A DNA stretch of 64,000 nt from a virus, in the IMG/VR virus record IMGVR_UViG_3300032893_000004, positions 64,001 to 128,000 of that record; one strand, 5' to 3'. The translations under genes and the position numbers were made by a program. This document shows positions 13,735 to 54,497 of this stretch, piece after piece (within the stretch, counting starts at the first letter, position 1; each line of letters starts with the position of its first letter). The notes beneath the pieces are model-generated. The model searched no databases and had not been told where the DNA came from. It saw nothing but the letters and a program-made list of their open reading frames with translations.

Positions 13735-13745
13735 CAGATTAGGCT
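13735..13745 (-). promoter_or_regulatory. AGCCTAATCTG motif (putative late promoter)
   Basis: Repeated motif; its TAA is the upstream gene's stop codon. Confidence 0.55.
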
Positions 13746-15475: not shown

Positions 15476-15481
15476 GGGCAA

Positions 15482-25336: not shown

Positions 25337-26379
25337 ATCTTATCGTTTACTCTCCTGATATTTTCCATGACGCGACCCATCGGGTCCTTCATAGAGCTTG
25401 GAGTGATATCGTCAAGAGCATCGTCGCGCTTTCGGCCTGGATCGGGCTGATAGTTCGACGAATGCATAGGTTCAGCGGTCAGTTCATCTTCGCGCCTCTT
25501 GAACCAGTTCTTGACACGAGTCCGAAAATCTTCCGAATCGACGTTCGGCATCGTTTTCTTGACCGATGACAGGGCCCGTTTCGGCGCGAAGGGGTTTACC
25601 TTGTCGACTTGCTTGTACTTAGACACGTACTCGCTGTTGATGAGCTTAGAGTCTGGTATCTCGTCTGGGTGCAAGTTGTGACCGTGAAGCCACGAGAACG
25701 CAGCCCTGTGCGGGTCGCCCTTCTGCTTGGCCATCACGTGCTGCGCTAGCTGGCGAGCAAGGTTCAGCTCGACCTGCGGATTCTTCTTGAAATACTCTTC
25801 TGTCATGTCTCGCGACATGGTTTCCAGCTGCCGCATCTCCGGAGTGATCTGACCTTTCGCACGCATGCGCGTGGTCATCTCGTCGATGGTCGGCTTCAGC
25901 ATTCCCCACTTGCCTATAGCCTTGGATCCTTTGAACTTACCAGACACGATCGGCTTGTGCTGCGTGTTCTGGCCGCCCGACGACTCCAGCTGCTCGACGT
26001 TCCACAAGAACCGATCCATCGGATGCTTGCCGAAGTCAGTCGACGTCTCCTGCTTGCCTGCTTGCGTCGGCTTAGACGGTAACACAGTCGGCTTCTGGAT
26101 AGTGTGACCGTCTCCGGCCATCGCCGTCGATAACGAGAGCCCGAGCGCCAGCGCCTTGGCGCGCAGAGACTTTGAAAGATCCGCGTCTTCTACCCACGCA
26201 GACATCGCGTGGCCGGATAGATATTCTGCGATCGAGTCGACGGCTTCTCGCAAGGTATCGCACGACATGGCGATCTCGTTCGTCATCGGGAACATCGCGA
26301 AGACAGGATGCAGATCTTCGAAGTCCGCGATCTTGAACCACTTTCTTTCCGCATCCGGATACTGCAAGTATAAAATCAT
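25333..26379 (-). CDS. Protein with a lysozyme/lytic-transglycosylase-like domain
   Basis: EQLESSGG (catalytic E-S), AIGKWGML..T, AAFSW..G. Confidence 0.55.
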   Translation of the reverse strand: MILYLQYPDAERKWFKIADFEDLHPVFAMFPMTNEIAMSCDTLREAVDSIAEYLSGHAMSAWVEDADLSKSLRAKALALGLSLSTAMAGDGHTIQKPTVLPSKPTQAGKQETSTDFGKHPMDRFLWNVEQLESSGGQNTQHKPIVSGKFKGSKAIGKWGMLKPTIDEMTTRMRAKGQITPEMRQLETMSRDMTEEYFKKNPQVELNLARQLAQHVMAKQKGDPHRAAFSWLHGHNLHPDEIPDSKLINSEYVSKYKQVDKVNPFAPKRALSSVKKTMPNVDSEDFRTRVKNWFKRREDELTAEPMHSSNYQPDPGRKRDDALDDITPSSMKDPMGRVMENIRRVNDKI

Positions 26380-28151
26380 GCAGCCTTCCTTTCGTTCATA
26401 AGTCGCCTGAAGTGTTCGCCCCAGTGCGACAGAATTTCTTTCTTGTCGTCGGGAAGCTGATCGATGGCGTCCGCGATCGACTTCATGTGCTCATACTTGA
26501 AAGTTGGTTCGCCGGCACTCCAGTTTCTTTCAGAAAAGTGCCTAAGCATCTGATTCTTCACATCGATGTCTGGTTCGGAACGGATAACTTTCGTGGACAT
26601 GTGCGGATTCTCGACAACAGAACGGAAGATGTCACCGGCTTCTTCCGGCGTCATGTCCGTCATTATCTTCTTGATAGCACCGTGCAACAGAGATCTCTGG
26701 TTCATTGTGAGACGACCTTTCTTGTTCACTATATCAGAAATCGCGAAAAGTGCGTCTTTTTTATTTTTCGGCAGAGATCTCAGCTGTTTAGCTGTCACAC
26801 AAGGCCTTTCTTGCGGAATAATGCGTCCTGGCGAGAAACGATCGTCCAGTGACGATTCTTGCCACATAGCATCGTCGTTTGGGTCAGCCGACACGTTCGA
26901 GGCCCAGTCGTTCATCTTATGCCAGCGATCGTGGAAGTTGTCGCGGACATGCTTGCGGACCGATTCGTCCTTTATCGATTGAACCTGTGCGTCCATCTCG
27001 TCTCGAATCTTCTGGCCGTGCTGTTTCCACCAATCAACCAGATCCTCGTGAGAATGCCAAGCGTTCCGGTTTGGTCGCAGAGCGTGATCCAAAGAAGACG
27101 AATGCAAGTACGACATAGGTGTCTCTTTCGAGATGTCGTGGGTGTCAGACTGCTTCCAGTGCAGATCTCCAAGCTTCCTGTGATACTGAAAATTACGCTC
27201 GTGATCGATCGCGAGGAGTGGATTGGTACCGCGCGGAGTAGTCCAGTTGCCTATCATCAGATTACCGTTATGACGATCCAGATTATTAGCAAGATAGTCC
27301 ATCACTGCTATCTTGTGTACGTCCAGGGGATCAACGTGAGCTTCGATGTTGCGGCTGCCGCGAGACGATATGAGCTGTCCTATGGATTTGTGGTCCGGCG
27401 CGAACTTGCGAACCGTCAGAGGAACGCCGTCGTGCTCGTGAGTCGATACATCTTCCGAAAGATGCCCGATTCCGCCAGCATCGAATAAAGCTTTTGTCGC
27501 CATGGTAGCCCACCCCAAGATAGGATTCTTGACCCACCGCTTCGTGGCCGACTCGATCTTCTTGTGGTACGGCTTGGCCATGTAAATGTCATTCTCCCCA
27601 GACTGATGCACCATCTTGGCCGAAATGCCATTTTCATCCAGTTTATGCGGCTTATGAACCGTGTCAGACGACAGTATCTTCGTGTAATCAGGTGGCGCTG
27701 GGAATTTTTCGAGATGTTGTTTGTGATCGACCGTAAGATGGGCATCGGCATCATTCTTGTTAGCGACCCGATTCCAGTCTTTCGTTCTAACTTTCTTTTC
27801 GAGATCGTGCATCGTCAGATCAGACAAGATATATCCAACCTGAACAGAGAATTCTCCTACGGATTTTGCCAGGAGCGTGCGGTGGAAATTCGACGGCAGT
27901 TCAGCTAGCTTCTGCTGTCGGAATGAGCTAGATGCGTTATACTCCTCAGCGAATTGAAGCGGAGTCTTCCCGTCCATGACTCGCCAGAATATGGCAGGCG
28001 TCATGCCGTTGATTCGGTTCTGGAACGACTTCGAGAGATCTGGACCTATCTCAGACTGTAGATCGCGCAGGAATTCATCAGCAGAAATCTTCGGCATCTC
28101 TGACTTCTTGATCGTCCTGCTTCGTTGTTCCGCCCATTTCTTTATCTTCAT
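26376..28151 (-). CDS. PI3/4-kinase/HipA-like atypical kinase
   Basis: YMAKPY (ATP-binding Lys), MDYLANNLDRHNGNLMI (catalytic loop), LLAIDHE. Confidence 0.7.
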   Translation of the reverse strand: MKIKKWAEQRSRTIKKSEMPKISADEFLRDLQSEIGPDLSKSFQNRINGMTPAIFWRVMDGKTPLQFAEEYNASSSFRQQKLAELPSNFHRTLLAKSVGEFSVQVGYILSDLTMHDLEKKVRTKDWNRVANKNDADAHLTVDHKQHLEKFPAPPDYTKILSSDTVHKPHKLDENGISAKMVHQSGENDIYMAKPYHKKIESATKRWVKNPILGWATMATKALFDAGGIGHLSEDVSTHEHDGVPLTVRKFAPDHKSIGQLISSRGSRNIEAHVDPLDVHKIAVMDYLANNLDRHNGNLMIGNWTTPRGTNPLLAIDHERNFQYHRKLGDLHWKQSDTHDISKETPMSYLHSSSLDHALRPNRNAWHSHEDLVDWWKQHGQKIRDEMDAQVQSIKDESVRKHVRDNFHDRWHKMNDWASNVSADPNDDAMWQESSLDDRFSPGRIIPQERPCVTAKQLRSLPKNKKDALFAISDIVNKKGRLTMNQRSLLHGAIKKIMTDMTPEEAGDIFRSVVENPHMSTKVIRSEPDIDVKNQMLRHFSERNWSAGEPTFKYEHMKSIADAIDQLPDDKKEILSHWGEHFRRLMNERKAA

Positions 28152-38460: not shown

Positions 38461-39852
38461 TTAGAATAAATTGTCCACTATGACATTTTTTCTTGGCTGA
38501 TAACCGGCAAGCGTCAGGAAGCGGAAGTGAGCTTCCGGGACGGACAAGTCCGCGATTGCGAGCTTCATGCGGCTGTACGGTGCCAGCTCGTGAAAGCCCC
38601 AAGTGTCCTTCTGGACAAGGTAACCGGTCACGAAGCCCGGCGATTTGTTGCCGAGGTCAGTGAAGGTCACGTTTGCGGATCCGTTTGCTGCGATACGACC
38701 GATGTAGTATGCAGTGGAGGCCGACGTCCCGCGATACACGTTGTAGAGCGAAGCTCCAGCAACGCCTGCGATAACTAGAGCAACTTGTTGGCCAGCTGCG
38801 ACCGTAACGGGTGCCGAGAACATCTCGACGCCTTCACCGCGTTCATTCTCAGCCGTCACGCCGTACACATAAGTGCCAGCGGGGATGAGCGCGCCAGAAC
38901 CGGACGGCGTACCGACCGCAGTTGCGGGCGGGAGCGGCGAGCCGATCATTGCGCGAAGAGGCGAAGTTTTGCCGGACAAGAAGCGCGAGTCTTCGAGACC
39001 GACCGTTCCGTTGGAAACCCACTGTCTGCGGAGATCCGCGCCGGAAGCGTCTTGTGCGGAGCCAGCGAGCACGATCCGTTGGATCGAGTTCACGCCCGTA
39101 CCGAGAGCGACCGAGGTGTTGTAACCGGACAAGATGACCGGGTCAACGAACATGGTTTCTGCTTTACCCATGTTCATGCGGCTGCGGAGAGCCGAACTTT
39201 CGATGATAGGCTGGTCGAGCGAACCGTTCTGCGAGAGAACGACCGACTTGTTCGATCCGTAAGATGCGAACATCAGATCCTGCGTCGAAACGAGGATGTC
39301 CGACATGCGAACTTGCGAATCGAGGCCGAGCATGCTCGGGAGTTCCGGCATCAGAGCCGGGTTACCGTCGAAGACGCCGTTGTTTGAGAAATCGGCCTTT
39401 CCTTTGAAAGAGTCGAATTCGATGTCCGCCGACAATTTGATTGCGGCGTTGTCCGCCTCACGGTCTTCGGCTTTCTTGCCGTCGATGGTCTCAACCATGT
39501 TAGCGGCGATTGTCACACGCTCAACACAGGAGTAGAAACACATCGGAACCGTAGCCCGGATATAGTCGCCGACGTTCAAGTCGCCGACCGCGCCTTCGCG
39601 CTGCGCCGTACCACCGAACCGTCCGTAAGACAGCTGACGGTTAAACTGCACAAGCAATGACTTGGCTTTCTTCACCGAGAAGAGCTTCTGGAGCTTGATG
39701 TGACTGTCGTCAAACGTCACGTTGTGCATCACAGGCTCAAGGTTTTCGATCTGGAGAGCAGATCCTTGGACCAACTGCGACGGTGCTACGTTGTAGTTAC
39801 CGGCCTCCAAGGTTTTCACGAGACTCTCAAGAGTCTTGACTAGATCGTCCAT
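38461..39852 (-). CDS. Major capsid protein (SPO1/Twort-like HK97 fold)
   Basis: 463 aa; K-TLEAG...GSALQIENLE N-terminus; REG, AAIKL..DIEF..F.G, GLD.Q; C-terminal LAP..RMKLA and P.KNVIVDN. Confidence 0.9.
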   Translation of the reverse strand: MDDLVKTLESLVKTLEAGNYNVAPSQLVQGSALQIENLEPVMHNVTFDDSHIKLQKLFSVKKAKSLLVQFNRQLSYGRFGGTAQREGAVGDLNVGDYIRATVPMCFYSCVERVTIAANMVETIDGKKAEDREADNAAIKLSADIEFDSFKGKADFSNNGVFDGNPALMPELPSMLGLDSQVRMSDILVSTQDLMFASYGSNKSVVLSQNGSLDQPIIESSALRSRMNMGKAETMFVDPVILSGYNTSVALGTGVNSIQRIVLAGSAQDASGADLRRQWVSNGTVGLEDSRFLSGKTSPLRAMIGSPLPPATAVGTPSGSGALIPAGTYVYGVTAENERGEGVEMFSAPVTVAAGQQVALVIAGVAGASLYNVYRGTSASTAYYIGRIAANGSANVTFTDLGNKSPGFVTGYLVQKDTWGFHELAPYSRMKLAIADLSVPEAHFRFLTLAGYQPRKNVIVDNLF

Positions 39853-39854
39853 TA

Positions 39855-40694
39855 TTATTTCCCTCCCTTAGAGTGGATAATTTTTTCGACTTCTTCTGCC
39901 CCTTCACCGGAGATGTAGAGGCGGTTTACCATTTCACGTTCGCTCTTGGTCAGAGCGGCAGGCGAAAGCTTGCGAGCTTCTGCCTTAACTTGATCGATCG
40001 TCATCGGACGGCCGTTACCAGCTGCCGGATTGTCATTCTCGGTCTTGTTCATGACCTGAATTTCTGTGATCGACTTGCGAGCAGGCTTAGCGAGAGCTTC
40101 GAAGGCCTTCACGACCATCTGATTGGCTTCCTCAGCTTGCTGAACACGTTTTTCAAGAGCGGCGATCATCGCCTCCGACTTGCCCATATCTTGCGGCGGT
40201 GCTTGCGGCGCCGGAGCAGGAGGAGCGGCAGACTCGGGGGCGGCCGGTGCAGCCTGACCTTGGTCTTGGCTGTAGGCAGCTTGGAGCTGTTGGCGGATGA
40301 TCGAATAGTGTCGCTCAAGTTCGTCCGGCGGCATGGATCCGTAGATCTGGGCCAGCTCTTCATCGGACAACGGCTGGTCTTCGCCAGGTTGCCCTTCGGC
40401 CGCAAGTTGTTGCTCGTCGCCCGCCGGAGGCTGTTGGCCATCCATAGGGGGTTGGTCACCTGCAGGCGGTTGATCGCCAGCCGGAGGAGCATCATCTGCG
40501 GGAGGAGCGTCGTCGGTAGGCGGCGCGTCAGAAGAAGCCGGTGCAGCGGATTTGTCCGGAGGAGCGTTTTTGTCGTCCTTCGGATCTGAATCTGCCGGAT
40601 CTGCCTTAGCTAACAGCTCAGCCTTCGCCAGCGTTTCGTCAACGCTATCTAGGATGCTCTGTACGTCTTGGTCAGTCCATTTTGGCTTAGTCAT
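39855..40694 (-). CDS. Probable capsid scaffold protein
   Basis: Acidic, P/A-rich, coiled-coil protein immediately upstream of the capsid gene. Confidence 0.65.
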   Translation of the reverse strand: MTKPKWTDQDVQSILDSVDETLAKAELLAKADPADSDPKDDKNAPPDKSAAPASSDAPPTDDAPPADDAPPAGDQPPAGDQPPMDGQQPPAGDEQQLAAEGQPGEDQPLSDEELAQIYGSMPPDELERHYSIIRQQLQAAYSQDQGQAAPAAPESAAPPAPAPQAPPQDMGKSEAMIAALEKRVQQAEEANQMVVKAFEALAKPARKSITEIQVMNKTENDNPAAGNGRPMTIDQVKAEARKLSPAALTKSEREMVNRLYISGEGAEEVEKIIHSKGGK

Positions 40695-41773: not shown

Positions 41774-41784
41774 AAGATTAGGCT
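41774..41784 (-). promoter_or_regulatory. AGCCTAATCTT motif (putative late promoter)
   Basis: Contains the stop codon of the 2191-aa gene; ATG lies 8 nt after TAATCT. Confidence 0.6.
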
Positions 41785-44700: not shown

Positions 44701-47700
44701 TTGATGTAGTTCAAGACGAATTCGTTCTTTTGCTGTTCTTCCGGTCCAGATTCTGAAGGCGTAAACGTCGATGCGAGATTGTTCATGAACTTTTCTCGCA
44801 CCAATCCGCGAGGATCGTTTATCCCTTCCTGGGAGATCTTGTTTTCGAACGTCTTCGCAATTTCCAGCACCGCAGCCGGTTCGGTATTGGAATTCAGCTG
44901 GGACGACACGCCGGCTATCTGACGAGCGTTGAGAGTATTCGGCTGAGCCGCAGCTCTGGCCAAAGCACTGATGCCTTCGCTCGACAAGATCCCGTGATCA
45001 GAAAGCTGGATCATAGTATCGTAGTCTTTTTGATCAATGGCGTTGCGTTCGATCTGCTTGCCCATGTTAGCCGGCGCCATATTGCGCGATTTTAGAGCTA
45101 CGTACGCCGACAACATCGTTCCGTTCTTATCTTCCGGGATGGCGTAGGATGCGGATGCCAAATGTTCAAGGACACTTTTTGCGATGCGCTTTCTGTCGTC
45201 CTGCGTCAGATCATCGCCTTGCGCTGGAGCCGAGAGCGCTTGCGCCAACATAGTCGACAACTCGCCCGGACTCTTCGTACGATACAAGTCGATCAGGTTG
45301 TTCAATCGAGAATTATAGATACCCAGCGTTTCGTCTCTCATCGATGAGCGACGTCCGTGCTCGTGCGCCTCCGGGTTCAGCATAGACGAGTTGATCTTTG
45401 CGGCCAGATGCTCCAGATCTTCCGGTGTGTGATTTCCGCCGGAGACCCACGAATCGAGAGTTCTTTGACGCAGCTTAGGATTGCCTATCGCCAAGATGTC
45501 TCTGACGGAGTTAGCTTGAGTCATCTGCTGCAGTTTTTCTGGCGAGAGCAGATTATCGGCCAGAGCTTGGTGCTTTACAAGTTCGCCGTCTTTACCTGGC
45601 ATATCAGCTAGAAAATCTAGGTTTGCACCAGCCGCCTTCAAAGATGATAGGAACCGATCGTCGTGATACCCCTGCTTCTGACGAGTCATCAACGAATACC
45701 ACTTCTCAGCGATCGGATTGTCTGTCTCTGAATCGCTGAAAGACGGCATCGACGCGACCCGTCCGTGTAAATAATTGACGAGGTCTTCCGCCTTCTGGCG
45801 GCCGATGGCCTTTTTGTCCTCCGACTCGTAGCTGGAGACATGCACCCCACGACTCAGTTGATTCATCTTCCGCGCGAGCAGATTGTAGGCAAGCGGTGCC
45901 TTGCCTGAAGCGGCCGCGTGATCGATCAGCGCATCGTCTCCTGGCTTGGTGTACATCTCATCGGGGATATTATTTAGCAACCCTTCGTCGGACATGTGCC
46001 CAGGTTGGCCTTCCGGTACTGAAATAAGCTGATCCAATACAGATCTGTCATTCGGCGATTCAGGATCCAAGTGGCTTACAGCCTTCGCCTGATAATTCTG
46101 GAAACTGCCGCCGATCCTATCGTTATCTCCCGGATCGTTGTACATGCCAAGCACGGCGTTGTGGAATATGTCCGGTCTGTGGTTCTTAACATGTTCGACT
46201 TCATCTTTGATTAGTCGCTGCTTGTTATCAGTCGACAACATGTTGAAAGCGCGGTCCCACGACGCCTGAGGAGCGTTAGCGCGAACAACTGATATGGCCG
46301 CCTTCTGCGAACCGCTGTTCAAGATCGGTTCGTATTTTTTGTTCTGCTCATCCTCCGGAAGGGAATCGTAGCGCTTAAAATAATCTCCCGCTCCGATCTT
46401 ATCCATAAGTTCGCCGTTCCGGGCAATCTCATGGAACAGATATTCCGGCATATTGTTAGATTCAAACAGCTTTCGTGCCATGTGAGCGGAATCATCGAAC
46501 AGCTCTGGGCGACCGCCATGGTCGTATACTTGCGTGTTGTTTGCGATATATTCCTGACGTTTTCGGAACATGTCGGCCAAGAAATCTGGATCGGCATCGT
46601 TCAGATTTATGTTGGACTGAACCTCGGAAAGATATCCTGGATTTTTGAGAATAGCAGCTTGGGCGTTTTTGTCGCCGTTCACCGCCAGATGCGAGATGGC
46701 CGTTACGATCCTGGAGTTGTTGTCCCGCTGGTTCCTGCCCATCACGTCGTTAGAATGCGATACGACCATCTGGTTCTTCGGAACTTTGTCGTCGAAGATG
46801 TTAGCGAGATCTTTAGAATTAGCCTCGCGGATGGCAGACGGTACGCGCTGATCGAGCGCCAAGTTGAACTTACTGCTTATGACGTTCTCCGGACGCTCCT
46901 TGGTCTTCTTGGAGATCTCATCTATGTTATCGCCCTGATACTTCTCGTGAGCCTTCGCGAAGATGGCTTCCTGATCCATCTTGGGCAACTTATCGAACTG
47001 CTGCTGAAACTTCGGATCATGGTACACGTTCGAGAGACTGGTCGCACCGGACTTTAGTCCTTCCTTCACCTGCTGTTCAGCCACCAACGGATGCAGCCGT
47101 GCGGCGTCTTGAACAGTCTTTGCCCGACGTTTCAAACCTTCGTCAACCACATCCATGTCTGCGTTCGGATGATTCAGAGCCTTGACGGCGACTTCCTGGT
47201 TCTTGTGGTTTACGATCTCTTTCAGCACGTCGGGCGGTACGGACTGGGCTTGAAGAATATCGCGTGCAGAATCTAGGTCCTTCGAGCCTTTTTGCCAGTA
47301 ATCGCGGACGTCCGCTTCGTCTGCCATAGGATGCTTGATCGCTTTGTTGAAACCTTTTTGGATCAGAGCCTTAACCTGCGGCTTCGTCAGCGATGGGTTC
47401 TGAAGAAGACTGTCGACCTTGTTACGGGTCTCCCAGTCGCCTGAATCTTTGAACCGCTTTATCATACCGTTGATGGACTCTTGCGGCAGACGCGGATTCT
47501 CGATGGCACTATCGCGGGAATTCTTGCCTACCGCGTACTTTGCCAGCAGCGCCGGGTCGACGTTCTTGTGGCTTAGCAGGGCATCTAAACGCTGGTTGGC
47601 GTAATAGTCATGTCTATCGCCGGACTTGTTAGCTTCGTACCACTGGTGAATCTTGTTTAACTGATCCTTCGATAGATCTTCGCGTCCTTCCACCAGATCG

Positions 47701-48353
47701 TTGAGAGCTTCGTGCGGATCATGCTTCGAAGCCGCAAACGCGTCGATAGTCCGATCGAGAGTTTCCGGAGTGTGCCGCGAACTGTTGATCAGACCTTTCT
47801 TGGCAAAATCTAACTCTCGGGAATGCTGCTTCTGGCCATTCTCATCCAGTTCGTTCGGATCTTGCTGAGACCGACCTTTGAAGAATTTCATATAGTAGTT
47901 CGGGCCAAGATGCTTGTAGGCATGAGGTACATCGCCGGAAGCTAGAACTTTCTCCGCCATTCCTTTCAGCTGATTCTCGTCCAAGATACCAGAATCGGCC
48001 ATTTCTGCGTGCAAATCCGACGAAGGATTCTCCGGATTGAAAGTCTTCAAGACAAAGTCTTGCTTCAACTCTTTAGGAGTATTCGGATGCTTGAGGATAT
48101 TCTCCATCAAGTCGTTGCGCGGTTCGGCGTCGCCGGTAGCAGCCGAGGTCGAGTCAGGAGTTACCGGCGCCATCGTGTGATGATAAAGCTTATCGATCGA
48201 ATGAGCTGACAGATTGGGATGAGAAGTCACTTCCTTCATCAGGTCGATGTTGTCAGCCTGCTCGTGTTCGGGCAGCTGGATATGATGTTCCACGTGGGCG
48301 TGCAAGGTATCTGCCGGCGTGTCGGGCGCTAAGTGTTTGATCTCGTCGCTCAT
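41778..48353 (-). CDS. Giant (2191 aa) helical-repeat protein with a possible C-terminal GNAT-like domain
   Basis: Many [HN]P[NS] LRV/HEAT-like repeats; C-terminal WAIEEYQSD...AVIENARAQGITHLYM...FRKIY...KFGF. Confidence 0.6.
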   Translation of the reverse strand: MSDEIKHLAPDTPADTLHAHVEHHIQLPEHEQADNIDLMKEVTSHPNLSAHSIDKLYHHTMAPVTPDSTSAATGDAEPRNDLMENILKHPNTPKELKQDFVLKTFNPENPSSDLHAEMADSGILDENQLKGMAEKVLASGDVPHAYKHLGPNYYMKFFKGRSQQDPNELDENGQKQHSRELDFAKKGLINSSRHTPETLDRTIDAFAASKHDPHEALNDLVEGREDLSKDQLNKIHQWYEANKSGDRHDYYANQRLDALLSHKNVDPALLAKYAVGKNSRDSAIENPRLPQESINGMIKRFKDSGDWETRNKVDSLLQNPSLTKPQVKALIQKGFNKAIKHPMADEADVRDYWQKGSKDLDSARDILQAQSVPPDVLKEIVNHKNQEVAVKALNHPNADMDVVDEGLKRRAKTVQDAARLHPLVAEQQVKEGLKSGATSLSNVYHDPKFQQQFDKLPKMDQEAIFAKAHEKYQGDNIDEISKKTKERPENVISSKFNLALDQRVPSAIREANSKDLANIFDDKVPKNQMVVSHSNDVMGRNQRDNNSRIVTAISHLAVNGDKNAQAAILKNPGYLSEVQSNINLNDADPDFLADMFRKRQEYIANNTQVYDHGGRPELFDDSAHMARKLFESNNMPEYLFHEIARNGELMDKIGAGDYFKRYDSLPEDEQNKKYEPILNSGSQKAAISVVRANAPQASWDRAFNMLSTDNKQRLIKDEVEHVKNHRPDIFHNAVLGMYNDPGDNDRIGGSFQNYQAKAVSHLDPESPNDRSVLDQLISVPEGQPGHMSDEGLLNNIPDEMYTKPGDDALIDHAAASGKAPLAYNLLARKMNQLSRGVHVSSYESEDKKAIGRQKAEDLVNYLHGRVASMPSFSDSETDNPIAEKWYSLMTRQKQGYHDDRFLSSLKAAGANLDFLADMPGKDGELVKHQALADNLLSPEKLQQMTQANSVRDILAIGNPKLRQRTLDSWVSGGNHTPEDLEHLAAKINSSMLNPEAHEHGRRSSMRDETLGIYNSRLNNLIDLYRTKSPGELSTMLAQALSAPAQGDDLTQDDRKRIAKSVLEHLASASYAIPEDKNGTMLSAYVALKSRNMAPANMGKQIERNAIDQKDYDTMIQLSDHGILSSEGISALARAAAQPNTLNARQIAGVSSQLNSNTEPAAVLEIAKTFENKISQEGINDPRGLVREKFMNNLASTFTPSESGPEEQQKNEFVLNYIKKQTLDPKIAPFAHAQLRNMAMQSAEAGNVDQAVSLWEQLPNDPNQLAAGAELSEDRIPDNLLNDPRFVEASASEWKLQALAENADRLTGANSSILVNRSLAVNAENPYSIDQSRMFSKMEHNQYVQPDDSVKLARSMPDEKFNPLIRQIGQAMDGNLIYAVHAKMRDMDALVKDPNLAAPNAPFMGAEHRNKILSNLDQYATAIHNASVKEETPNLKDKLGKISEMIGQIHGHIKTVASHMRLQAPDLNNTGKLEASRDHATMLSILTKIAKTGIQLDREDALKVMDMVKEYHSIEEASGKELAPEKTHEAIKGIVGAAENFEEQDWREMFKSAPHAIFALRDRTNIPTEALNGSNYQQFGEKSTNKDENRAKTAFVKSSKDWFAKMSKEDIAHHGKNLLHMYVKLKNNNEIFHNDYTYAMEEGLKYMGPDMSHKDLTDLLAQSGAHDLRNSLFQTAVENGVGGVESLRAYAKENHDYMFSGHTDIHPSEGHNLAMKLKPVTSSPHIDEDLAAQVYDMFDRNKEAMAQASIDILSNKSTPPKAVKMYTDAILRNDAQNYKDIDKRTASEMATQLMQHPNVSEQDLGELFALSNEQFPKFFAPGGKFNPALTNPTYGGKLFRAIPVALPESQKAGASGSVDESKVLRDISLQHKDYERMKATMALIPAEGMAWAEFKRKFPAEEKSLPPSVKAVFTSAQNKPVMPEQFAQAMRALDDNSKKYHLTYSEWSSKLQRHNPPGRANLVVQVNNSEASEKELSQDPKLWSLYQHLLQKTNGISNGSIGMHPTTPHMVSWSRVDTDQSVKGKNAWAIEEYQSDFAQKFRRNLKALMSQFPAGTKINGQNITAEDMKQYAKKIDTHLSDWTEASMSAVIENARAQGITHLYMHGAELRGYMSNGGKYDREYWDNPNTKPFTVGFRKIYDENPRKFGFQQCDYTDYPKHNKEMLNNLKKNKLSTKCWVLELQPKAPKKRRA

Positions 48354-48949
48354 TTTTCACCGTACTTTAGCCAACGCATCAGCTCTTTTGTCCAGTCTTG
48401 ATCTTCCGCACCGGAGAGGTTAGCTTCGTCGATGGCCGGATCATATTCTCTGGAAGCCATTTCCCGATCGTCGTCGTGCTTCTGCTGATCTTTTTCAACC
48501 ATACCGAGAACTGTATCGTTGATCTTAGCCTTGGGCGAATGGAAGTCCGGCGGCGGATTGGCCGGCACAACCGGTAGGGCCTGCTGAACGTCTGTTTTGC
48601 GAGCTACTTTGATCTCGCCGCGAGTGAAAGCATTGAACAGCGCGTCCTTCTCTTCCTGCGGCAACAGGTGACCGTTGAGGATGACCGTGTGGCCGTCCGA
48701 GGTGATCTCTACCACGTCGCCGTTGTCCATGACGTACCGTAAAAGATTGACGGTGGCCTTGGTCGGCTCCGACATAGTCAGGTGCGACGAATTTCCGACA
48801 ACCTGCTGCATCTTCGGATAACTGTTCTGGAACAACTTAGGCAATTGGCCGTTTGTATTGTCTACGACAAAGTCGAGCGCATCTCCGTCCGTGCGGATCT
48901 CCGCGAGCGGTATTTCGGAATAATCTGATTTGATGACTACGACTTTCAT
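48350..48949 (-). CDS. Hypothetical protein
   Basis: Coupled between the protease and the giant gene. Confidence 0.55.
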   Translation of the reverse strand: MKVVVIKSDYSEIPLAEIRTDGDALDFVVDNTNGQLPKLFQNSYPKMQQVVGNSSHLTMSEPTKATVNLLRYVMDNGDVVEITSDGHTVILNGHLLPQEEKDALFNAFTRGEIKVARKTDVQQALPVVPANPPPDFHSPKAKINDTVLGMVEKDQQKHDDDREMASREYDPAIDEANLSGAEDQDWTKELMRWLKYGEK

Positions 48950-50646
48950 GCTACTCTCTTCGCTCTTTCTTCGGCGTTAACCTTGGTCATATGATTCGCT
49001 GCGTGATCAAACATCTGTCCTATGCTCATGTCAGAACGATCGGCGAGTTTTTGATAATATTTCAATCCAGAAACCGCCGTTTTTATTGTAGCAGGATCGT
49101 GACCTTGATCCAACATCTTTCCGGCAAGAGTTTTAGCGTCTATGCCCTTGAGCCACTTCGCAGCTTCCGGATGAAGCTTATCGTTCCCTTTTTCGGCAGA
49201 AATAAGGTCAGGTTCCGTAAAACCACCGTTCCAACCGAGAAAAGCATCGTCGTGATCTATGCTCATCAGATGACCTTTAGGATGAACCAACAAATTGCCG
49301 TTATGCCGGTCACCTACACCAAGAATATGATTCGCGATAATCAACTTGTGAATGTGGCCATCCTTCTCGTGTTTCCGAAAAGCGTTGGCTAGAACATCTC
49401 CGCTTTGCAAAGGAGTCTTTGCTTCTTTTATGTATTCCATGGCTGATATGGCATTGCCGCCGTGGACGTTCGGATGTGCTACTTTTGTGACAATCGGCAC
49501 ATACTTTCCGAGTCCAAAAACGTCTTTCATGATCTGAAAGTGATTGTGCGCATTCGTGTATTCTTTGTCCGCCATACGATTTCCGACTGGACCTTCCGGC
49601 CTATGCTTAACCAAGACGTCCCGTCCTTGATCGTTACGAAGATGCAGGATTTTCTTTTTCCGACTGGAATGCACAGACTCGGAAGCTGGATCGTAGTAAA
49701 GTCCCTCTACCAGCGACTTCTGGTCATCGTCGGACGACGGATGGGCGTGCTTAGCTCCGATGCGCACCAGCTTTGGAGACGGCATGTTCTTCTTGAGCGC
49801 CAGCTCTTCCGCCAGCTTCTCGAAGTGGCCGATGTAGTCGTCTGACACCTCTGGTAGAGCGCCTTTCAGCACTTCCTTGAGAGGACGCTTGCGGTCCCAG
49901 TCGCGAACAGCGGCCTTCACGCGATTTCTCTGGAATCCGCTGATATGCTCGCGGGTAAGTGCGGCTTGACCGGTCAGCTGGGACGGAGCTACGTTGCCCA
50001 TACCAGCCTCTATGCTCTTCGTGAGACTCTCGACGGCCTTGTGCAGATCCAGTATCGGATCCTTGGGGATGAACATATCATCGAGGATAATTGAATCGAT
50101 TTCGATTAAATGATCGACTCGATCCGACACATCTGAAATATATTTAGCTATTGAGATCGATTTTGGATCTTCAAGTAATCCGGCTATGGCTGCCTTATTG
50201 CACGCGCGTAAGGTGCATGCCACGCGCCTTCCGACAGTTTCTTTTAAGATGTAGTCATCCCGCTCAAGCGTCGCACCCTCAATACTGAAGTTTGTAAGTA
50301 GCCGTTCGCCCTGTTTTGCATAATAACGTATCATTGCGGCGACTGCGACTGCGCCAGGATGATTTACATCATCGTCATCGAACAATTCTGAAATAATATA
50401 AACAAACGGCTTTTTTACTATGTTCCAATAATATCTTTGACGATCATTTTCACAATCTTCTTTTTTAAGAATTTTTCTTGCATAGATAATTGCCCCGATG
50501 ATATCGTCGGATTTATTCGAATGCTCCCAATTTAATACCCCTCGGCCTTCGACGAGATCTGATATGTCGTGGTTGGCAACAACGAGTAACTCACCTGAGC
50601 TGTCGATTGTTTCAACTGTTGCACATCCGTCCAGTTTGAGGCCCAT
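48946..50646 (-). CDS. Prohead (maturation) protease fused to a C-terminal PI3K/HipA-like kinase
   Basis: N-terminal DG.AT.E..DSSGE, LNWEH (His), FSIEG (Ser), VA.T...N; C-terminal LVKH, ILGVGDRHNGNLL, SIDHD. Start ATG 50646 with GGAGG. Confidence 0.75.
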   Translation of the reverse strand: MGLKLDGCATVETIDSSGELLVVANHDISDLVEGRGVLNWEHSNKSDDIIGAIIYARKILKKEDCENDRQRYYWNIVKKPFVYIISELFDDDDVNHPGAVAVAAMIRYYAKQGERLLTNFSIEGATLERDDYILKETVGRRVACTLRACNKAAIAGLLEDPKSISIAKYISDVSDRVDHLIEIDSIILDDMFIPKDPILDLHKAVESLTKSIEAGMGNVAPSQLTGQAALTREHISGFQRNRVKAAVRDWDRKRPLKEVLKGALPEVSDDYIGHFEKLAEELALKKNMPSPKLVRIGAKHAHPSSDDDQKSLVEGLYYDPASESVHSSRKKKILHLRNDQGRDVLVKHRPEGPVGNRMADKEYTNAHNHFQIMKDVFGLGKYVPIVTKVAHPNVHGGNAISAMEYIKEAKTPLQSGDVLANAFRKHEKDGHIHKLIIANHILGVGDRHNGNLLVHPKGHLMSIDHDDAFLGWNGGFTEPDLISAEKGNDKLHPEAAKWLKGIDAKTLAGKMLDQGHDPATIKTAVSGLKYYQKLADRSDMSIGQMFDHAANHMTKVNAEERAKRVA

Positions 50647-51395
50647 TATGCGTACCTCCAAATGTATCCTCTATGCGTTTTTGTGACTCCGCAACAAACA
50701 CCGCGTACCTTCGATGCGCAACATCCAATAGATTCAGTATCTTTAGGGCAGTCCCATACCTTTACTGTCAATCCCGTCAGCGGATCGATCTGCAAAACTT
50801 TTTTGGCTCTTTTTAATTGAAGTTCTCGCTTGAAAATTGGGTCCAGACGCAATTTATTTAGTCTCGCTTCATTCGCTGCGCTAAGAGCTTCGCTGCGATC
50901 ATGGGTCGACCAGTATTTTTCGGCTCCGGCCATGCGATTTTGTTTGCCGGAATCAGACATTTTCCGCAATTGTTCTTTTCCAGCATCTGTGGCTGCCCAC
51001 AGTTTACGTTCTTCTGACTTTTTCGTACGTCGGTCTTTGTCCCAGCTCGCGATTGCGCTGGCAGAAAGTGTCTTTTTCAATTCTGATGTGTATATGCATC
51101 CTTCTTTCCCGCCATGTTTAATGTTGTATCCCGAGGGACGAAGTGAGCCAAAACATACTATAAAATGTCTCTCCATGCGATCCAAGGAAGTCTGATCTAT
51201 ATATGTAATCAACTCTTCCTTTTCAAAAGATTCGCGCCCATATTTTTTTATGGCATTCTTGATTGGCCTAGAAGTATTTTTGGTCGCACAACAATGGTCT
51301 GCCCAACGCTCGGCCATTGAGCGAGTAGTCTGGCCGATATAGATCTTACCGTTCACATTGTTCGTGATTTTGTAAATGATTCCGTATCGTTGCAT
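50646..51395 (-). CDS. GIY-YIG homing endonuclease with NUMOD1-like C-terminus
   Basis: GIIYKITNNVNGKIYIGQT, RW..H, GYN...GG; C-terminal KTHRGYIWRY. Likely start MQRYG at 51395. Confidence 0.9.
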   Translation of the reverse strand: MQRYGIIYKITNNVNGKIYIGQTTRSMAERWADHCCATKNTSRPIKNAIKKYGRESFEKEELITYIDQTSLDRMERHFIVCFGSLRPSGYNIKHGGKEGCIYTSELKKTLSASAIASWDKDRRTKKSEERKLWAATDAGKEQLRKMSDSGKQNRMAGAEKYWSTHDRSEALSAANEARLNKLRLDPIFKRELQLKRAKKVLQIDPLTGLTVKVWDCPKDTESIGCCASKVRGVCCGVTKTHRGYIWRYA

Positions 51396-51401
51396 TCTCG
51401 T

Positions 51402-51412
51402 AAGATTAGGCT
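51402..51412 (-). promoter_or_regulatory. AGCCTAATCTT motif (putative late promoter)
   Basis: Upstream of the GIY-YIG and protease genes; ATG lies 7 nt after TAATCT. Confidence 0.6.
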
Positions 51413-52296
51413 CATCCGTGATTACATCCTGGTCCGTGTTCATGCTCTCTCTCGTGTTCAATATTCATAGCTAAATACTCATCGTAACTCACGAATTCGC
51501 TCTTAACAAGAGGAACTGCATCTGGCACTTCTTCGGCTTTCTTCAGCTTCCAGTAGTCCTTGTGGTAGTCATACCCAAATTCGACGAACTCGATCACGCC
51601 AGCATCGTTGAAGCCGAAGTTCGGCGGGACAAAGCTCATCACGTGTCGGCAGCGCGGGTGAAGCGGCGACTGATGCGGAGTCTTTCCGTCCCATTCTTTG
51701 GGCTTGAAGTATCCCTCCTGGATCTGTGACAACTTGTACGGCTTCGGCTTCCGTATCGCAGCGGAGTCGTGGTACATCGCCTTGCAGTATTTACAAATCT
51801 TGTGGTCGCAGACTCCTAGAAAAACGACGGTCGGATCTTTGACACCGATGTCAGACGCAAGCTTGCCGATACCCTCGCGCGAGGCATATGTCTGCACGAT
51901 GCGCGCTTCGTTCGAGACGAGCAGATCGACGTACTGACCTGCCTTCTCGAAGTGCCCGCGAATAGATCGAATCGCTTCAGATGGGGTCTTCGCTTTAGCC
52001 ACGTCTGCCAGAATGTGGTTCTTGATCTTGAGCTGCTGTGAATCCATGTAATTACTCGTAATATCAGCCAAATTTTCGATATTCTTCTGATCAGGCTTAG
52101 AATGGGCTCCGTACATGGTCTTCAGAGTGAAGTTGTACAGGCCTTCGATCGTATGGAGCGGATCAGCTCGGCGAACGACTTCGAAGTACAGCTTCGGCCC
52201 TTTGAACATCTTGCCTAGCAGCTTAGCCTTCGTTCCTTCGAACAGAGACTCGATCCGCTGGATTATGATGTTCCTCTGGGCGTCGGTGAGCTTCAT
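51412..52296 (-). CDS. MuF/SPP1 gp7-like head morphogenesis protein
   Basis: Follows the portal gene; D.KICKYC...PLHPRCRH. Confidence 0.7.
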   Translation of the reverse strand: MKLTDAQRNIIIQRIESLFEGTKAKLLGKMFKGPKLYFEVVRRADPLHTIEGLYNFTLKTMYGAHSKPDQKNIENLADITSNYMDSQQLKIKNHILADVAKAKTPSEAIRSIRGHFEKAGQYVDLLVSNEARIVQTYASREGIGKLASDIGVKDPTVVFLGVCDHKICKYCKAMYHDSAAIRKPKPYKLSQIQEGYFKPKEWDGKTPHQSPLHPRCRHVMSFVPPNFGFNDAGVIEFVEFGYDYHKDYWKLKKAEEVPDAVPLVKSEFVSYDEYLAMNIEHEREHEHGPGCNHG

Positions 52297-54497
52297 CAGC
52301 TCCCCTTCTTTTTACCGTCTTTGAGGATCCTCGCCATGGCGGCGACCTCTTTCGCAGATTCGCGCTTGAAGTGGGCCATCGTGGAGTCTACCAGCTGCTT
52401 GTGCTGGCGCATCAGGCGACGCGAGATTCTATCGTGGTTATTCTGGATGGTCTTTTCGAGCAGCATGTAGCTATTCGTCGACCACGCCATATTCTTGGCC
52501 GAGATATCCTTCACGATGTCGATCGCTTTTTCGGCTTTAGAAGTCTGCTCAGGCGGCATGCTGCCGCCTCCGGAGTCGCTGCTGTCATCGTCCGACCCGG
52601 AATCCTTGTTGTCCGAGCCAGAATCTTTGTTATCACCTTCGTCGTCCTGGATAGGGTTTCCCTGCGCGTCAGCCGTGATACCTTGCTCGGCCAGTGCCTG
52701 CTGCTGCATCATCTGCTGAGCTTGCATCTGCTGCTGCATCGCTATCTGAGCTTGCTGGAGGATCATCTGCTTGTTCTGGAACCAGAACGGATCGCGGATG
52801 TACTGGTAGCGAGGATCAGACGCAGCGCCTTTCACTTTGAAGAAGTTTTCGAGGATCTGACCAACAGTCAGGTACTTGTCCATGACTGCCTGGAACTGCG
52901 GGTTAAGCGGAAAGTCGCCGCCCATCTCGACCGGAACCGGGTTCTTCTCGACCTGTTCCATGATCTCGTTGTAGTTCATGTGAACGGCCATGTCCTGCTG
53001 CAGACGGGTGTTCTCTTTTTCCGGAGAATCCTTATCCAAACCAGTCAGAACGATCTGATGCGTCTTAGCCAGTTCCGGATCCACGAATGGGAGGATATGG
53101 GTATTCAAAAAGTCTTGGATATCGGATAAGAGCGGACGGAGGCCCACATCGCGGGCAGCCGTAAGCTTCCACTCGTTGTCCGATTCTGAAAGTGCCTGAG
53201 TATTCGTGCCCCGAGCAAGGTGAGCGTAGCCAGGCAATTCTTCCGGCGACATCTGGAAGGCCGAGAGGATCACCCGAGCGTTGTTGTCCATCAGGTACTG
53301 GAATTCTGCGTCGCGGCCGGAGTTATCGATCGCTTCCCAGTTCAGCTTATCCTCGGATCCGATCGCGAAGACGGGCATGCGCCACGAGTTTTGAACGGAG
53401 TTGATCGACTGATGGAATTGGAGGCGAATACGCTGTGCTGCTGCTTCGTCCATGGAGTCGGACTGGAACACGAGCATGCCCTTCGAAGCGCGGCCGTGCT
53501 GGAAGTACAGCTTGTTATGGACAGTGATGTTGATGTGGGTCGTGATCGCGTTGAGCGCCTGATCGATCGGAGTAAGAGGGTAGCCGTTATACTCGATGCC
53601 TGTCGTCGGATAAAGATTGTAGACGACCATCTCTTCTTCGGTGAATGTCTGAACCGGCTTTCCTTCGATGACCTGAACGTAGCGGTACTCGTCCTTCTTG
53701 TACTTCTCGATGTCGATCTTCTTGTTCTTGATCTGCTGCAACTGACGAATAGCTTCTTGGCGAAGCGACTGGTCGTGTTCTTTCTGCGGCAAGATTTTCA
53801 ACATCGTGCCGGCGTCGGAAGCGCGCCATGCGTATAGTTCTCGTTTGCCTGTTTCCGGATTCGTCCACCAGCTACGTTCGCAGGCGAGACGACCGAAGGC
53901 AAGTCCATCGCGGGTCACCAGCTTCAGGAATTGAGACAAGTTGACTTGATCAAGCTCGCCGTCAAGAGTGCCGCGACCGCACTGCCAGAACTTCTTCTTG
54001 GCTGCGTCGATTCTCTCTTGAATCTTGCGCTGATCTTCTTCAGAACGCTTGGCGTTCTTGTCCATGTCTTGAAATTCGAAGCCTACACTGAAGCGGTCCG
54101 TCCTAGGACGACCGAAGGATGATATATGGTTCGAACGAGCTTGAAGAATCTCGTTGACCAACTCGTCGCCGCCCGGCCCGCAGATACGCTTGATGATATG
54201 ATCAGGCGTTAGATTCTGTTTTAGCCGGTAAAATCCGAGAGCACCGGAATAGTTAGCATGCGGGTCAACCTGGAACGACATTCGTTCGAGTTGAGCTGCC
54301 TGCATAGCGTTCTGAGCTTTGATAGACTTAACAATCTCACCGAGAACACCGGTATCAGCTGTAGTCACTTCCTCTTTTTCGTTGGAAAGTTCCCGCGCCG
54401 CCGCGTCAGCTTTAAGAAGCTTCAGAGCGTTCGGATCCAGAGCGACTATCTCTTGCCGTGGGCGATAACGCTTCTTTTTTTCTTCTTCGTTTGCCAT
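52296..54497 (-). CDS. Portal protein
   Basis: FLKLVTRD, GYPLTPID, NKLYF.HG...KG.L, NSWRMPV, RDAEFQ, SAFQMSPEEL, GLRPLL; position after TerL. Confidence 0.88.
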   Translation of the reverse strand: MANEEEKKKRYRPRQEIVALDPNALKLLKADAAARELSNEKEEVTTADTGVLGEIVKSIKAQNAMQAAQLERMSFQVDPHANYSGALGFYRLKQNLTPDHIIKRICGPGGDELVNEILQARSNHISSFGRPRTDRFSVGFEFQDMDKNAKRSEEDQRKIQERIDAAKKKFWQCGRGTLDGELDQVNLSQFLKLVTRDGLAFGRLACERSWWTNPETGKRELYAWRASDAGTMLKILPQKEHDQSLRQEAIRQLQQIKNKKIDIEKYKKDEYRYVQVIEGKPVQTFTEEEMVVYNLYPTTGIEYNGYPLTPIDQALNAITTHINITVHNKLYFQHGRASKGMLVFQSDSMDEAAAQRIRLQFHQSINSVQNSWRMPVFAIGSEDKLNWEAIDNSGRDAEFQYLMDNNARVILSAFQMSPEELPGYAHLARGTNTQALSESDNEWKLTAARDVGLRPLLSDIQDFLNTHILPFVDPELAKTHQIVLTGLDKDSPEKENTRLQQDMAVHMNYNEIMEQVEKNPVPVEMGGDFPLNPQFQAVMDKYLTVGQILENFFKVKGAASDPRYQYIRDPFWFQNKQMILQQAQIAMQQQMQAQQMMQQQALAEQGITADAQGNPIQDDEGDNKDSGSDNKDSGSDDDSSDSGGGSMPPEQTSKAEKAIDIVKDISAKNMAWSTNSYMLLEKTIQNNHDRISRRLMRQHKQLVDSTMAHFKRESAKEVAAMARILKDGKKKGS

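Follow-up and report, generated by a model that had tools for sequence, protein, structure and literature searches.

We analysed a gene in a 64,000 bp stretch of viral DNA, referred to here as the window (positions 64,001 to 128,000 of the IMG/VR record IMGVR_UViG_3300032893_000004, a whole virus record of 155,057 bp). The gene encodes a polyprotein in which a predicted prohead protease domain is followed by a copy of the N-terminal arm of the phage's own major capsid protein, a helical linker and a domain with the fold of the PI3K/PI4K kinases. The minus-strand open reading frame (ORF) spans 48946-50661 and has 571 residues if counted from a TTG at 50661. The true start, however, is the ATG at 50646, which has the sequence GGAGG 8 nt upstream and overlaps the stop codon of the preceding gene; the public gene call likewise gives a protein of 566 aa. 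Residue numbers below count from the upstream TTG, so that the initiating methionine is residue 6. The features that are needed for the argument are as follows, where AF2 stands for the AlphaFold model, pLDDT for its predicted local distance difference test score and HMM for hidden Markov model.

48946..50646, minus strand: polyprotein gene (protease, capsid-arm copy, linker, kinase), 566 aa from the ATG
50152..50646, minus strand: predicted assemblin-fold prohead serine protease domain, residues 6-170 (AF2 pLDDT about 90; Foldseek; catalytic residues)
50521-50523, 50359-50361 and 50284-50286, minus strand: protease catalytic codons for His47, His101 and Ser126, respectively
49942..50049, minus strand: copy of the capsid propeptide/N-arm junction, residues 205-240 (BLASTP and HMM; disordered in the AF2 model)
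50017-50019, minus strand: codon of K215, within the tandem L-x-K-[AS] sites of the copy (K208-A209 and K215-S216)
49789..49941, minus strand: conserved helical linker, residues 241-291, ending in Leu-Lys-Lys at 289-291 (AF2 helices; conservation)
48949..49764, minus strand: PI3K/PI4K-fold kinase domain, residues 300-571 (Pfam, Foldseek, motif survey)
49597-49617, 49294-49320 and 49246-49263, minus strand: kinase sites, containing the beta-3 Lys352, the catalytic loop (D451, H453, N456) and the metal-binding Asp469, respectively
38461..39852, minus strand: major capsid protein of the SPO1/Twort type, 463 aa (phrog_752; PDB matches 9vel, 5lii and 9row)
39739-39846, minus strand: N-terminal original of the copied segment, capsid residues 3-38, with L-x-K-T sites at K6 and K13
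39855..40694, minus strand: probable scaffolding protein, 279 aa, acidic and proline-rich, directly upstream of the capsid gene (from position and composition only)

The protease gene is placed in the head module, between the genes for the portal (52296-54497) and the capsid protein, and the order portal, protease, capsid is the same in phages Mx1, SPO1 and phi812. The capsid gene is approximately 9 kb from the protease gene because a gene for a 2191-aa protein (41778-48353, minus strand) intervenes. This protein has no Pfam match, and the counterpart in L002, a relative whose protease module is 82% identical, is an ORF of 2200 aa in the same position. In the PDB, the capsid protein of the window matches 5lii and 9row, from the phi812 capsid protein, and 9vel, which is SPO1 Gp6.1 (E 2e-17). 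The putative scaffold has no family match in Pfam or PHROG.

A copy of the capsid N-arm in the protease

Residues 205-240 of the polyprotein align without gaps to residues 3-38 of the capsid protein, with 20 of the 36 positions identical (BLASTP, pairwise E 3e-7). The initial annotation of this DNA had compared two shorter stretches of 29 residues (49948-50034 and 39745-39831); their coordinates are exact and on recounting 17/29 residues are identical. When the whole 155-kb genome was scanned with an HMM of the motif, it contained two copies only (E 1e-19 and 4e-15), the next match being at E 1.3. We also considered that the segment could be a general cargo tag, and rejected this, as regular-expression and HMM scans place it only in the capsid protein and the protease. 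The copy in the protease is therefore real.

The initial annotation had also suggested that a similar segment may exist in other SPO1/Twort-like proteases, and this is the case. The 256-aa protease of SPO1, gp3.2, has a copy of the SPO1 capsid N-arm directly behind the catalytic domain, and the phi812 protease Gp94 has a copy of the arm of the phi812 capsid protein Gp96 in the same arrangement. The protease of Myxococcus phage Mx1 also bears an arm copy of its own capsid protein. In SPO1 the similarity between protease and capsid extends approximately 12 residues further into the capsid body. In addition, 28 loci were collected from IMG/VR by catalytic-domain patterns only, not by the segment, with a 12-sequence alignment and with a distant capsid gene taken from the same record where needed. 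Wherever both genes of a phage could be compared, the pair of segments was present. The arm copy is a paralogue of the junction between the capsid propeptide and the N-arm, including a conserved lysine and about 23 residues of the arm that is kept in the mature capsid.

Co-variation of the copy with the capsid

If the copy had a function tied to the capsid, as the initial annotation supposed, it should follow the capsid sequence from phage to phage. This was found in each comparison that we made. In 19 non-redundant phages the mean alignment score of the protease segment with the capsid segment of the same phage is 86.8, as against 65.5 for crossed pairs, and none of 20,000 permutations reached this value (p 5e-5). 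Within the main clade only (16 phages) the scores are 87.4 and 74.9 (p about 2e-5), and this also holds with row and column means removed. More identities than expected occur at P1', P6', P7', P9' and P13', which are variable positions, and at several positions upstream of the site. In a 5x5 matrix of five deeply separated lineages (the window, Mx1, L003, SPO1 and phi812), each protease copy is closest to its own capsid arm. Independent evolution of the two copies after an ancient duplication would give like scores for own and foreign capsids, so the higher own-pair scores suggest either a lineage-specific partner that is shared by the two segments or repeated conversion between them.

The probable cleavage site

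In both proteins of the window there are two L-x-K sites seven residues apart. The second of these in the protease, K215, is kept in 148 of 155 aligned sequences of the family; it has Leu, Ile or Met at P3 and Ala or Thr at P1', followed by an aliphatic residue and by Ala-Gly at P4'-P5'. Its counterparts in the alignment are K13 in the window's capsid protein and Lys24 in the precursor of the phi812 capsid protein. The PDB chain 9row, a phi812-type capsid protein, has 439 residues and begins at residue 25 of the 463-residue precursor, and we read this as the mature N-terminus of the phi812 protein (cleavage between K24 and S25). The SPO1 scaffold contains eight [LIMVF]-x-K-[AST]-[LIMVF] sites where 0.31 are expected (p 0.0005). 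Lys-Ser sites are also visibly abundant in the phi812 scaffold. The conserved lysine, the mature start in 9row and the sites in the SPO1 scaffold together suggest that the protease of the SPO1/Twort/Mx1 lineage most likely cuts after lysine, and that the stretch downstream of the cut is most likely the arm retained by the mature capsid protein. Cleavage of the window polyprotein at K215 would follow by homology.

The linker that follows the copy ends in a further Leu-Lys-Lys motif, as had been noted in the initial annotation, and helices are modelled for the linker by AF2. K290 and K291 are kept in 108-112 of the 155 sequences and this motif is a possible second cleavage site.

The protease domain

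The AF2 model of the 566-aa chain, built on 37 homologues, has two confident domains (1-165 and 290-566 in the numbering of that chain) and a region of low confidence between them, which holds the capsid-like segment and the helical linker. The full-length model was of little use for identifying the first domain, as matches to the kinase swamped the protease signal in Foldseek. The N-terminal domain was also modelled alone; this model has a lower pLDDT (64), and its fold matches are weak though consistent. Among the 40 PDB matches listed for it there are 34 herpesvirus proteases and one T4 gp21, with E values of 1.5e-3 to 0.15. The T4 gp21 structure (5jbl) superimposes with a template modelling (TM) score of 0.49 and a root mean square deviation (rmsd) of 4.5 Å over 166 columns. 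In BFVD, a library of viral structures, many matches are named prohead protease (E 1e-9 to 1e-7).

No match covering residues 1-300 was found in Pfam, PHROG or NCBIfam, where protease models such as S78, S80 and U35 gave no hit, and SPO1 gp3.2 had no BLASTP match to the protease domain of the window in the search of loci. This family of proteases is too divergent for the curated models. The assignment therefore depends on the fold, the catalytic residues, the genomic context and homology to annotated proteases. The catalytic residues are almost invariant among the 155 aligned family members (His47 in 155, Ser126 in 154 and His101 in 148). On the modelled fold and these residues, the N-terminal domain is identified as a prohead serine protease of the herpesvirus protease (assemblin) fold, in the clan that also includes T4 gp21 and HK97 gp4.

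Distribution of the fusion

An exhaustive profile-free search with residues 6-300 gave 807 cluster representatives at E <=1e-3, of which 733 reached 1e-10, with clusters defined at 50% identity. The surveys of the kinase and of conservation reported here cover the 150 best of these 807 representatives. The shortest protein has 272 aa and the longest 1764 aa, and in most of them the match extends to query position ~287. The protease, the arm copy and the linker are thus a constant module at the N-terminus, ahead of C-terminal parts that vary. The close relatives are contigs of about 138-175 kb, and their proteins carry no functional names beyond a kinase label.

Mx1 is the only relative in the phage collection that was searched. 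Its 'putative prohead protease' (WNM70322, 1239 aa, L001:13002-16721) is 41% identical over the N-terminal module and has an arm copy, the linker, an insert of ~650 aa without known function and a kinase-like C-terminus. A conserved insert of this size before the kinase-like domain is also present in many of the long family members. The Mx1 kinase-like domain has the catalytic loop D-R-N-D-G-N and in the alignment it is without the catalytic His and the beta-3 Lys, so by its sequence it is probably a pseudokinase. The architecture of the protein is not mentioned in the Mx1 genome announcement. Neither the arm copy nor a protease-kinase fusion is described in the papers that were searched, including that announcement and the Felix O1 paper, although this is not proof of novelty.

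The same uninterrupted fusion ORF recurs in the 82%-identical contig, in the genome of the Mx1 isolate and, from several sources, in over 100 clusters that are independent of each other. The fusion is thus no oddity of the window but a genuine and ancestral feature of the clade, a large group of uncultured phages of ~160 kb.

The kinase domain and other putative cargo

The Pfam family PI3_PI4_kinase (PF00454) matches residues 437-474 with 42.8 bits (cut-off 27.1), covering profile positions 134-172 only. Within this region the motif DRHNGN occupies residues 451-456 and IDHD occupies residues 468-471. The two-lobed fold of the domain, which was modelled with a pLDDT mostly above 85, is closest in Foldseek to PI3K-gamma and to PI4KII alpha and beta (E 1.7e-7 to 5e-6), and the superposition on PI4KII-beta has an rmsd of 4.5-5.2 Å over ~220-230 columns. 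When the whole protein was searched against PDB sequences, the catalytic loop of the kinase was the sole match (E about 0.1). The initial annotation had described the domain as PI3K/HipA-like. Pfam, Foldseek and the two motifs bear out the PI3K/PI4K part of this description. The HipA part finds no such support: the protein has no match to HipA family models, and among family members HipA_2 was matched in one of the 48 representatives of one Pfam scan and in none of the 68 of another.

With an HMM made from the family alignment, 108 of the 150 representatives were found to have the kinase domain, which is C-terminal in nearly all of them. The fusion to a kinase, which the initial annotation took to be the unusual part of the protein, is thus common within the lineage. 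All four catalytic positions are intact in 68 of the 108 domains, including that of the window. With its catalytic residues preserved, the kinase of the window is probably active.

The kinase is not the only domain found behind the N-terminal module. The initial annotation had proposed a survey of C-terminal fusions, and this returned mainly the kinase, with GGDEF, acetyltransferase, DUF5661 and histidine phosphatase domains as the others. Pfam analysis of 116 representatives gave PI3_PI4_kinase in 49, GGDEF in 6, DUF5661 in 4, a histidine phosphatase in 1 and acetyltransferase families in a few. With the GNAT acetyltransferases and an SLT-like domain included, the variable cargo comprises kinase, GGDEF, GNAT, histidine phosphatase, DUF5661 and SLT-like domains.

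There is also a second, free-standing kinase of the same type in the window:

26376..28151, minus strand: PI3/PI4-type kinase, 591 aa, among the neck and tail genes (Pfam 32.4 bits)

It matches the catalytic loop of the fused kinase by BLASTP (E 3e-5). Two L-x-K-S sites lie within its first 100 residues, and a separate 'kinase' is also annotated in Mx1, downstream of the capsid gene.

Proposed function of the polyprotein

Taken together, the data suggest that the protein is a head-maturation polyprotein of the SPO1/Twort/Mx1 lineage in which the arm copy serves as the self-cleavage site and probably as a signal for incorporation into the prohead, with the kinase as cargo. We give this interpretation a probability of about 0.6. 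The identities of the domains, the conservation of the module across the family, the co-variation and the alignment of the lysine with a known mature N-terminus are established, and the following sequence of events would account for them. By mimicking the N-arm of a capsid subunit, the copy would bring the polyprotein into the assembling prohead, where its docking partner would be whatever the capsid arm engages, either the scaffold or a neighbouring capsid subunit. On activation, the protease would trim the capsid propeptide and would cleave itself between K215 and S216, and possibly also at K291. Self-cleavage at the first site would free a fragment of ~40 kDa that consists of the arm copy, the linker and the kinase. 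The kinase would be carried into the prohead and freed there, and, like Alt of T4, it may leave the head together with the DNA.

Several observations weigh against this interpretation. Firstly, in two loci of a more distant clade, L003 (9986-11680) and L004 (757-2412), the order is protease, linker, SLT-like domain, arm copy and a C-terminal CxxC...CxxC module, so that the copy sits after the cargo, near the C-terminus, and not behind the protease. The arm is therefore not necessarily the new N-terminus of the cargo. (The SLT-like domain is named from an E-S-S-G-G motif only, not from comparison with family models, and the end of these proteins is small and Cys-rich.) Secondly, the arm segment has a pLDDT below 50 in the AF2 model and makes no modelled contact. 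Thirdly, enrichment of the strict lysine motif is not significant in the scaffold of the window (1 site, 0.12 expected, p 0.11) or in its other head proteins, and is strong only in the SPO1 scaffold. Fourthly, the paralogues keep fixed differences (Glu versus Thr at P3', Gln versus Gly at P16', Ile versus Arg at P22', and also at P15'), so the protease and capsid segments need not bind one identical site. Finally, degenerate catalytic residues occur in 40 of the 108 domains, among them the one in the cultured phage Mx1, and enzymatic delivery therefore cannot be the universal role.

The initial annotation had envisaged self-cleavage that releases an arm-first fragment, docks it in the shell and delivers a kinase, and this is partly supported. 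The alignment of the near-invariant lysine with the mature start of the phi812 capsid protein makes a cut immediately before the arm copy plausible, but the arrangement in L003 and L004 means that arm-first cargo is not general. Likewise, delivery of a kinase is weakened as a conserved purpose by the degenerate domains.

These degenerate domains lead to a different view of the C-terminal part, namely that its role in the core of the prohead is mainly structural, like that of the scaffold part in herpesvirus UL26, with catalysis dispensable, and that it is not an enzyme for delivery to the host. The 40 domains have lost the catalytic Asp, His or Asn, and often the beta-3 Lys, yet they keep a profile match at the level of the fold, and the nearly constant C-terminal position would also suit a structural part. 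However, preservation of all four catalytic positions in the other 68 implies selection for activity, another kinase of this type is encoded among the phage's neck and tail genes, and there is a separate scaffold-like gene. We consider it rather doubtful that the domain is mainly structural, although, with more than a third of the domains catalytically dead, its conserved role may be so in part.

The main rival concerns the arm copy itself. It may be no more than an extended substrate or pseudosubstrate site, both segments fitting the same groove or exosite of the protease, in which case there would be no docking and entry into the prohead would be achieved otherwise, for example via the helical linker. 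The near-invariant lysine and the P3/P1'/P2' pattern are common to both segments, as this would require; a protease that is itself the shared partner would produce co-variation just as well; and the position of the copy relative to the cargo varies. However, the conservation covers about 23 residues on the P' side, which to our knowledge is far beyond what known prohead proteases read, the SPO1 similarity continues into the capsid body, and in the capsid the stretch is a retained structural arm. For these reasons we regard a site that acts as substrate alone as rather unlikely.

It is very improbable that the two segments resemble each other only as a relic, without function, of an old duplication or of a protease-capsid fusion, or through recent gene conversion. 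The two stretches are about 75% identical in DNA, which could be taken as a sign of such an origin. However, conservation of the segment extends to most of the 150 representatives and across the Herelleviridae, and each paralogue has its own fixed signature. Additionally, codons are identical at 11 of the 20 identical residues (counted by hand), compared with a rough estimate of about 7.5 from typical codon degeneracy, so there is no clear sign of recent conversion and we did not find this explanation convincing. Finally, an assembly artefact, which the initial annotation had named as a danger for the fusion, or a frameshift artefact is refuted by the recurrence of the continuous ORF in the 82%-identical contig, in Mx1 and in the independent clusters.

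A broader reading can be offered tentatively, and we think it less likely than the mechanism set out above. It would make the capsid N-arm decoy a general ticket for entry of SPO1-type proteases into the prohead, and a large uncultured clade of Mx1-like phages of ~155-175 kb would load enzymes by this means. These would be mainly PI3/PI4-type kinases, with GGDEF cyclases, acetyltransferases and a phosphatase in addition, and they would be set free by self-cleavage and enter the host with the injected DNA.

Comparison with known systems

The closest systems are SPO1 gp3.2 and phi812 Gp94 of the Herelleviridae. They share with the window the protease family, the position between the portal and the scaffold/capsid genes, and an arm copy with a lysine site after the catalytic domain. 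In contrast with the window protein, they are about 256 aa, have only a ~60-aa tail after the copy and lack both the Mx1-type helical linker and an enzyme cargo. Mx1 has the N-terminal module, arm copy, linker and C-terminal kinase-like domain of the window, and differs in the ~650-aa insert and in the missing catalytic His and beta-3 Lys.

In herpesvirus UL26 an N-terminal protease is made in one chain with the part that carries it into the procapsid, and it is released by self-cleavage. The protease fold and the logic of the polyprotein are like those of the window. However, the C-terminal part of UL26 is a scaffold with a capsid-binding tail, where the window has a capsid-arm copy and an enzyme domain, and UL26 is cleaved after Ala, whereas the predicted cut in the window is after Lys.

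In T4, Alt and the internal proteins are loaded into the prohead via capsid-targeting sequences, are trimmed by gp21, which has the assemblin fold, and are injected with the DNA. The T4 sequence is a short N-terminal tag on separate proteins and is cut after Glu (L/I-x-E); the arm copy is not a targeting sequence of this type. In the window the cargo is fused to the protease, the putative signal is a capsid-arm copy of ~35 aa, internal or C-terminal, which in this genome is on no protein other than the protease and the capsid protein itself, and the cut would be after Lys. The phiKZ-like phages have processed ejection proteins, and the logic proposed for the window is similar.

The kinase of the window has the D-R-H-x-x-N loop, metal-binding Asp and beta-3 Lys of the eukaryotic and bacterial PI3K/PI4K-fold kinases, with PI3K-gamma and PI4KII alpha/beta as the best fold matches. 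It differs from them in being a minimal domain of ~270 aa without helical or C2 accessory domains, and sequence similarity is confined to the catalytic loop.

The recruitment of prohead proteases into procapsids is known for only a few model phages, and an arm copy that co-evolves with the capsid points to a simple rule for it. SPO1, phi812/K and Mx1 are all cultured and two of them have capsid structures, so that the rule is testable there. Being short and portable, the copy might also be used to direct foreign proteins into such capsids. Furthermore, the protease-kinase architecture marks a large unstudied group of phages, as the N-terminal module is matched by 807 clusters. These phages seem to bring in signalling enzymes with the virion, a point of relevance to how the host is taken over or disarmed in the first minutes of infection.

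Neighbouring genes

The gene that precedes the protease gene (50646-51461, minus strand) encodes a GIY-YIG homing endonuclease (Pfam GIY-YIG, phrog_314) and lies between a 294-aa head gene and the protease gene. Its stop codon overlaps the protease ATG, and the local G+C content falls to 0.46. In L002 there is no homing endonuclease and the corresponding 293-aa gene runs directly into the protease gene. Identity to the window is 99% for the capsid protein of the L002/G001 phage (L033), but falls to 82% for the protease module and to about 60% for the full fusion protein of that contig. On these sequence identities, the head module is mosaic next to the homing endonuclease.

Residues ~294-406 of the capsid protein form an insertion with a match to phrog_19622 (esterase/lipase by its label, E 2e-9) and a weak one to a 'virion associated protein' chain, 8h89 (E 0.06). 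This is probably a surface insertion domain.

Additionally, the late-gene block contains a 746-aa protein with Nudix and VTC (polyphosphate-related) domains (15494-17734, minus strand) and a 580-aa protein with a GP88 domain (13739-15481, minus strand). At the place in Mx1 that corresponds to these two genes there is a 1479-aa protein annotated as 'NUDIX hydrolase'.

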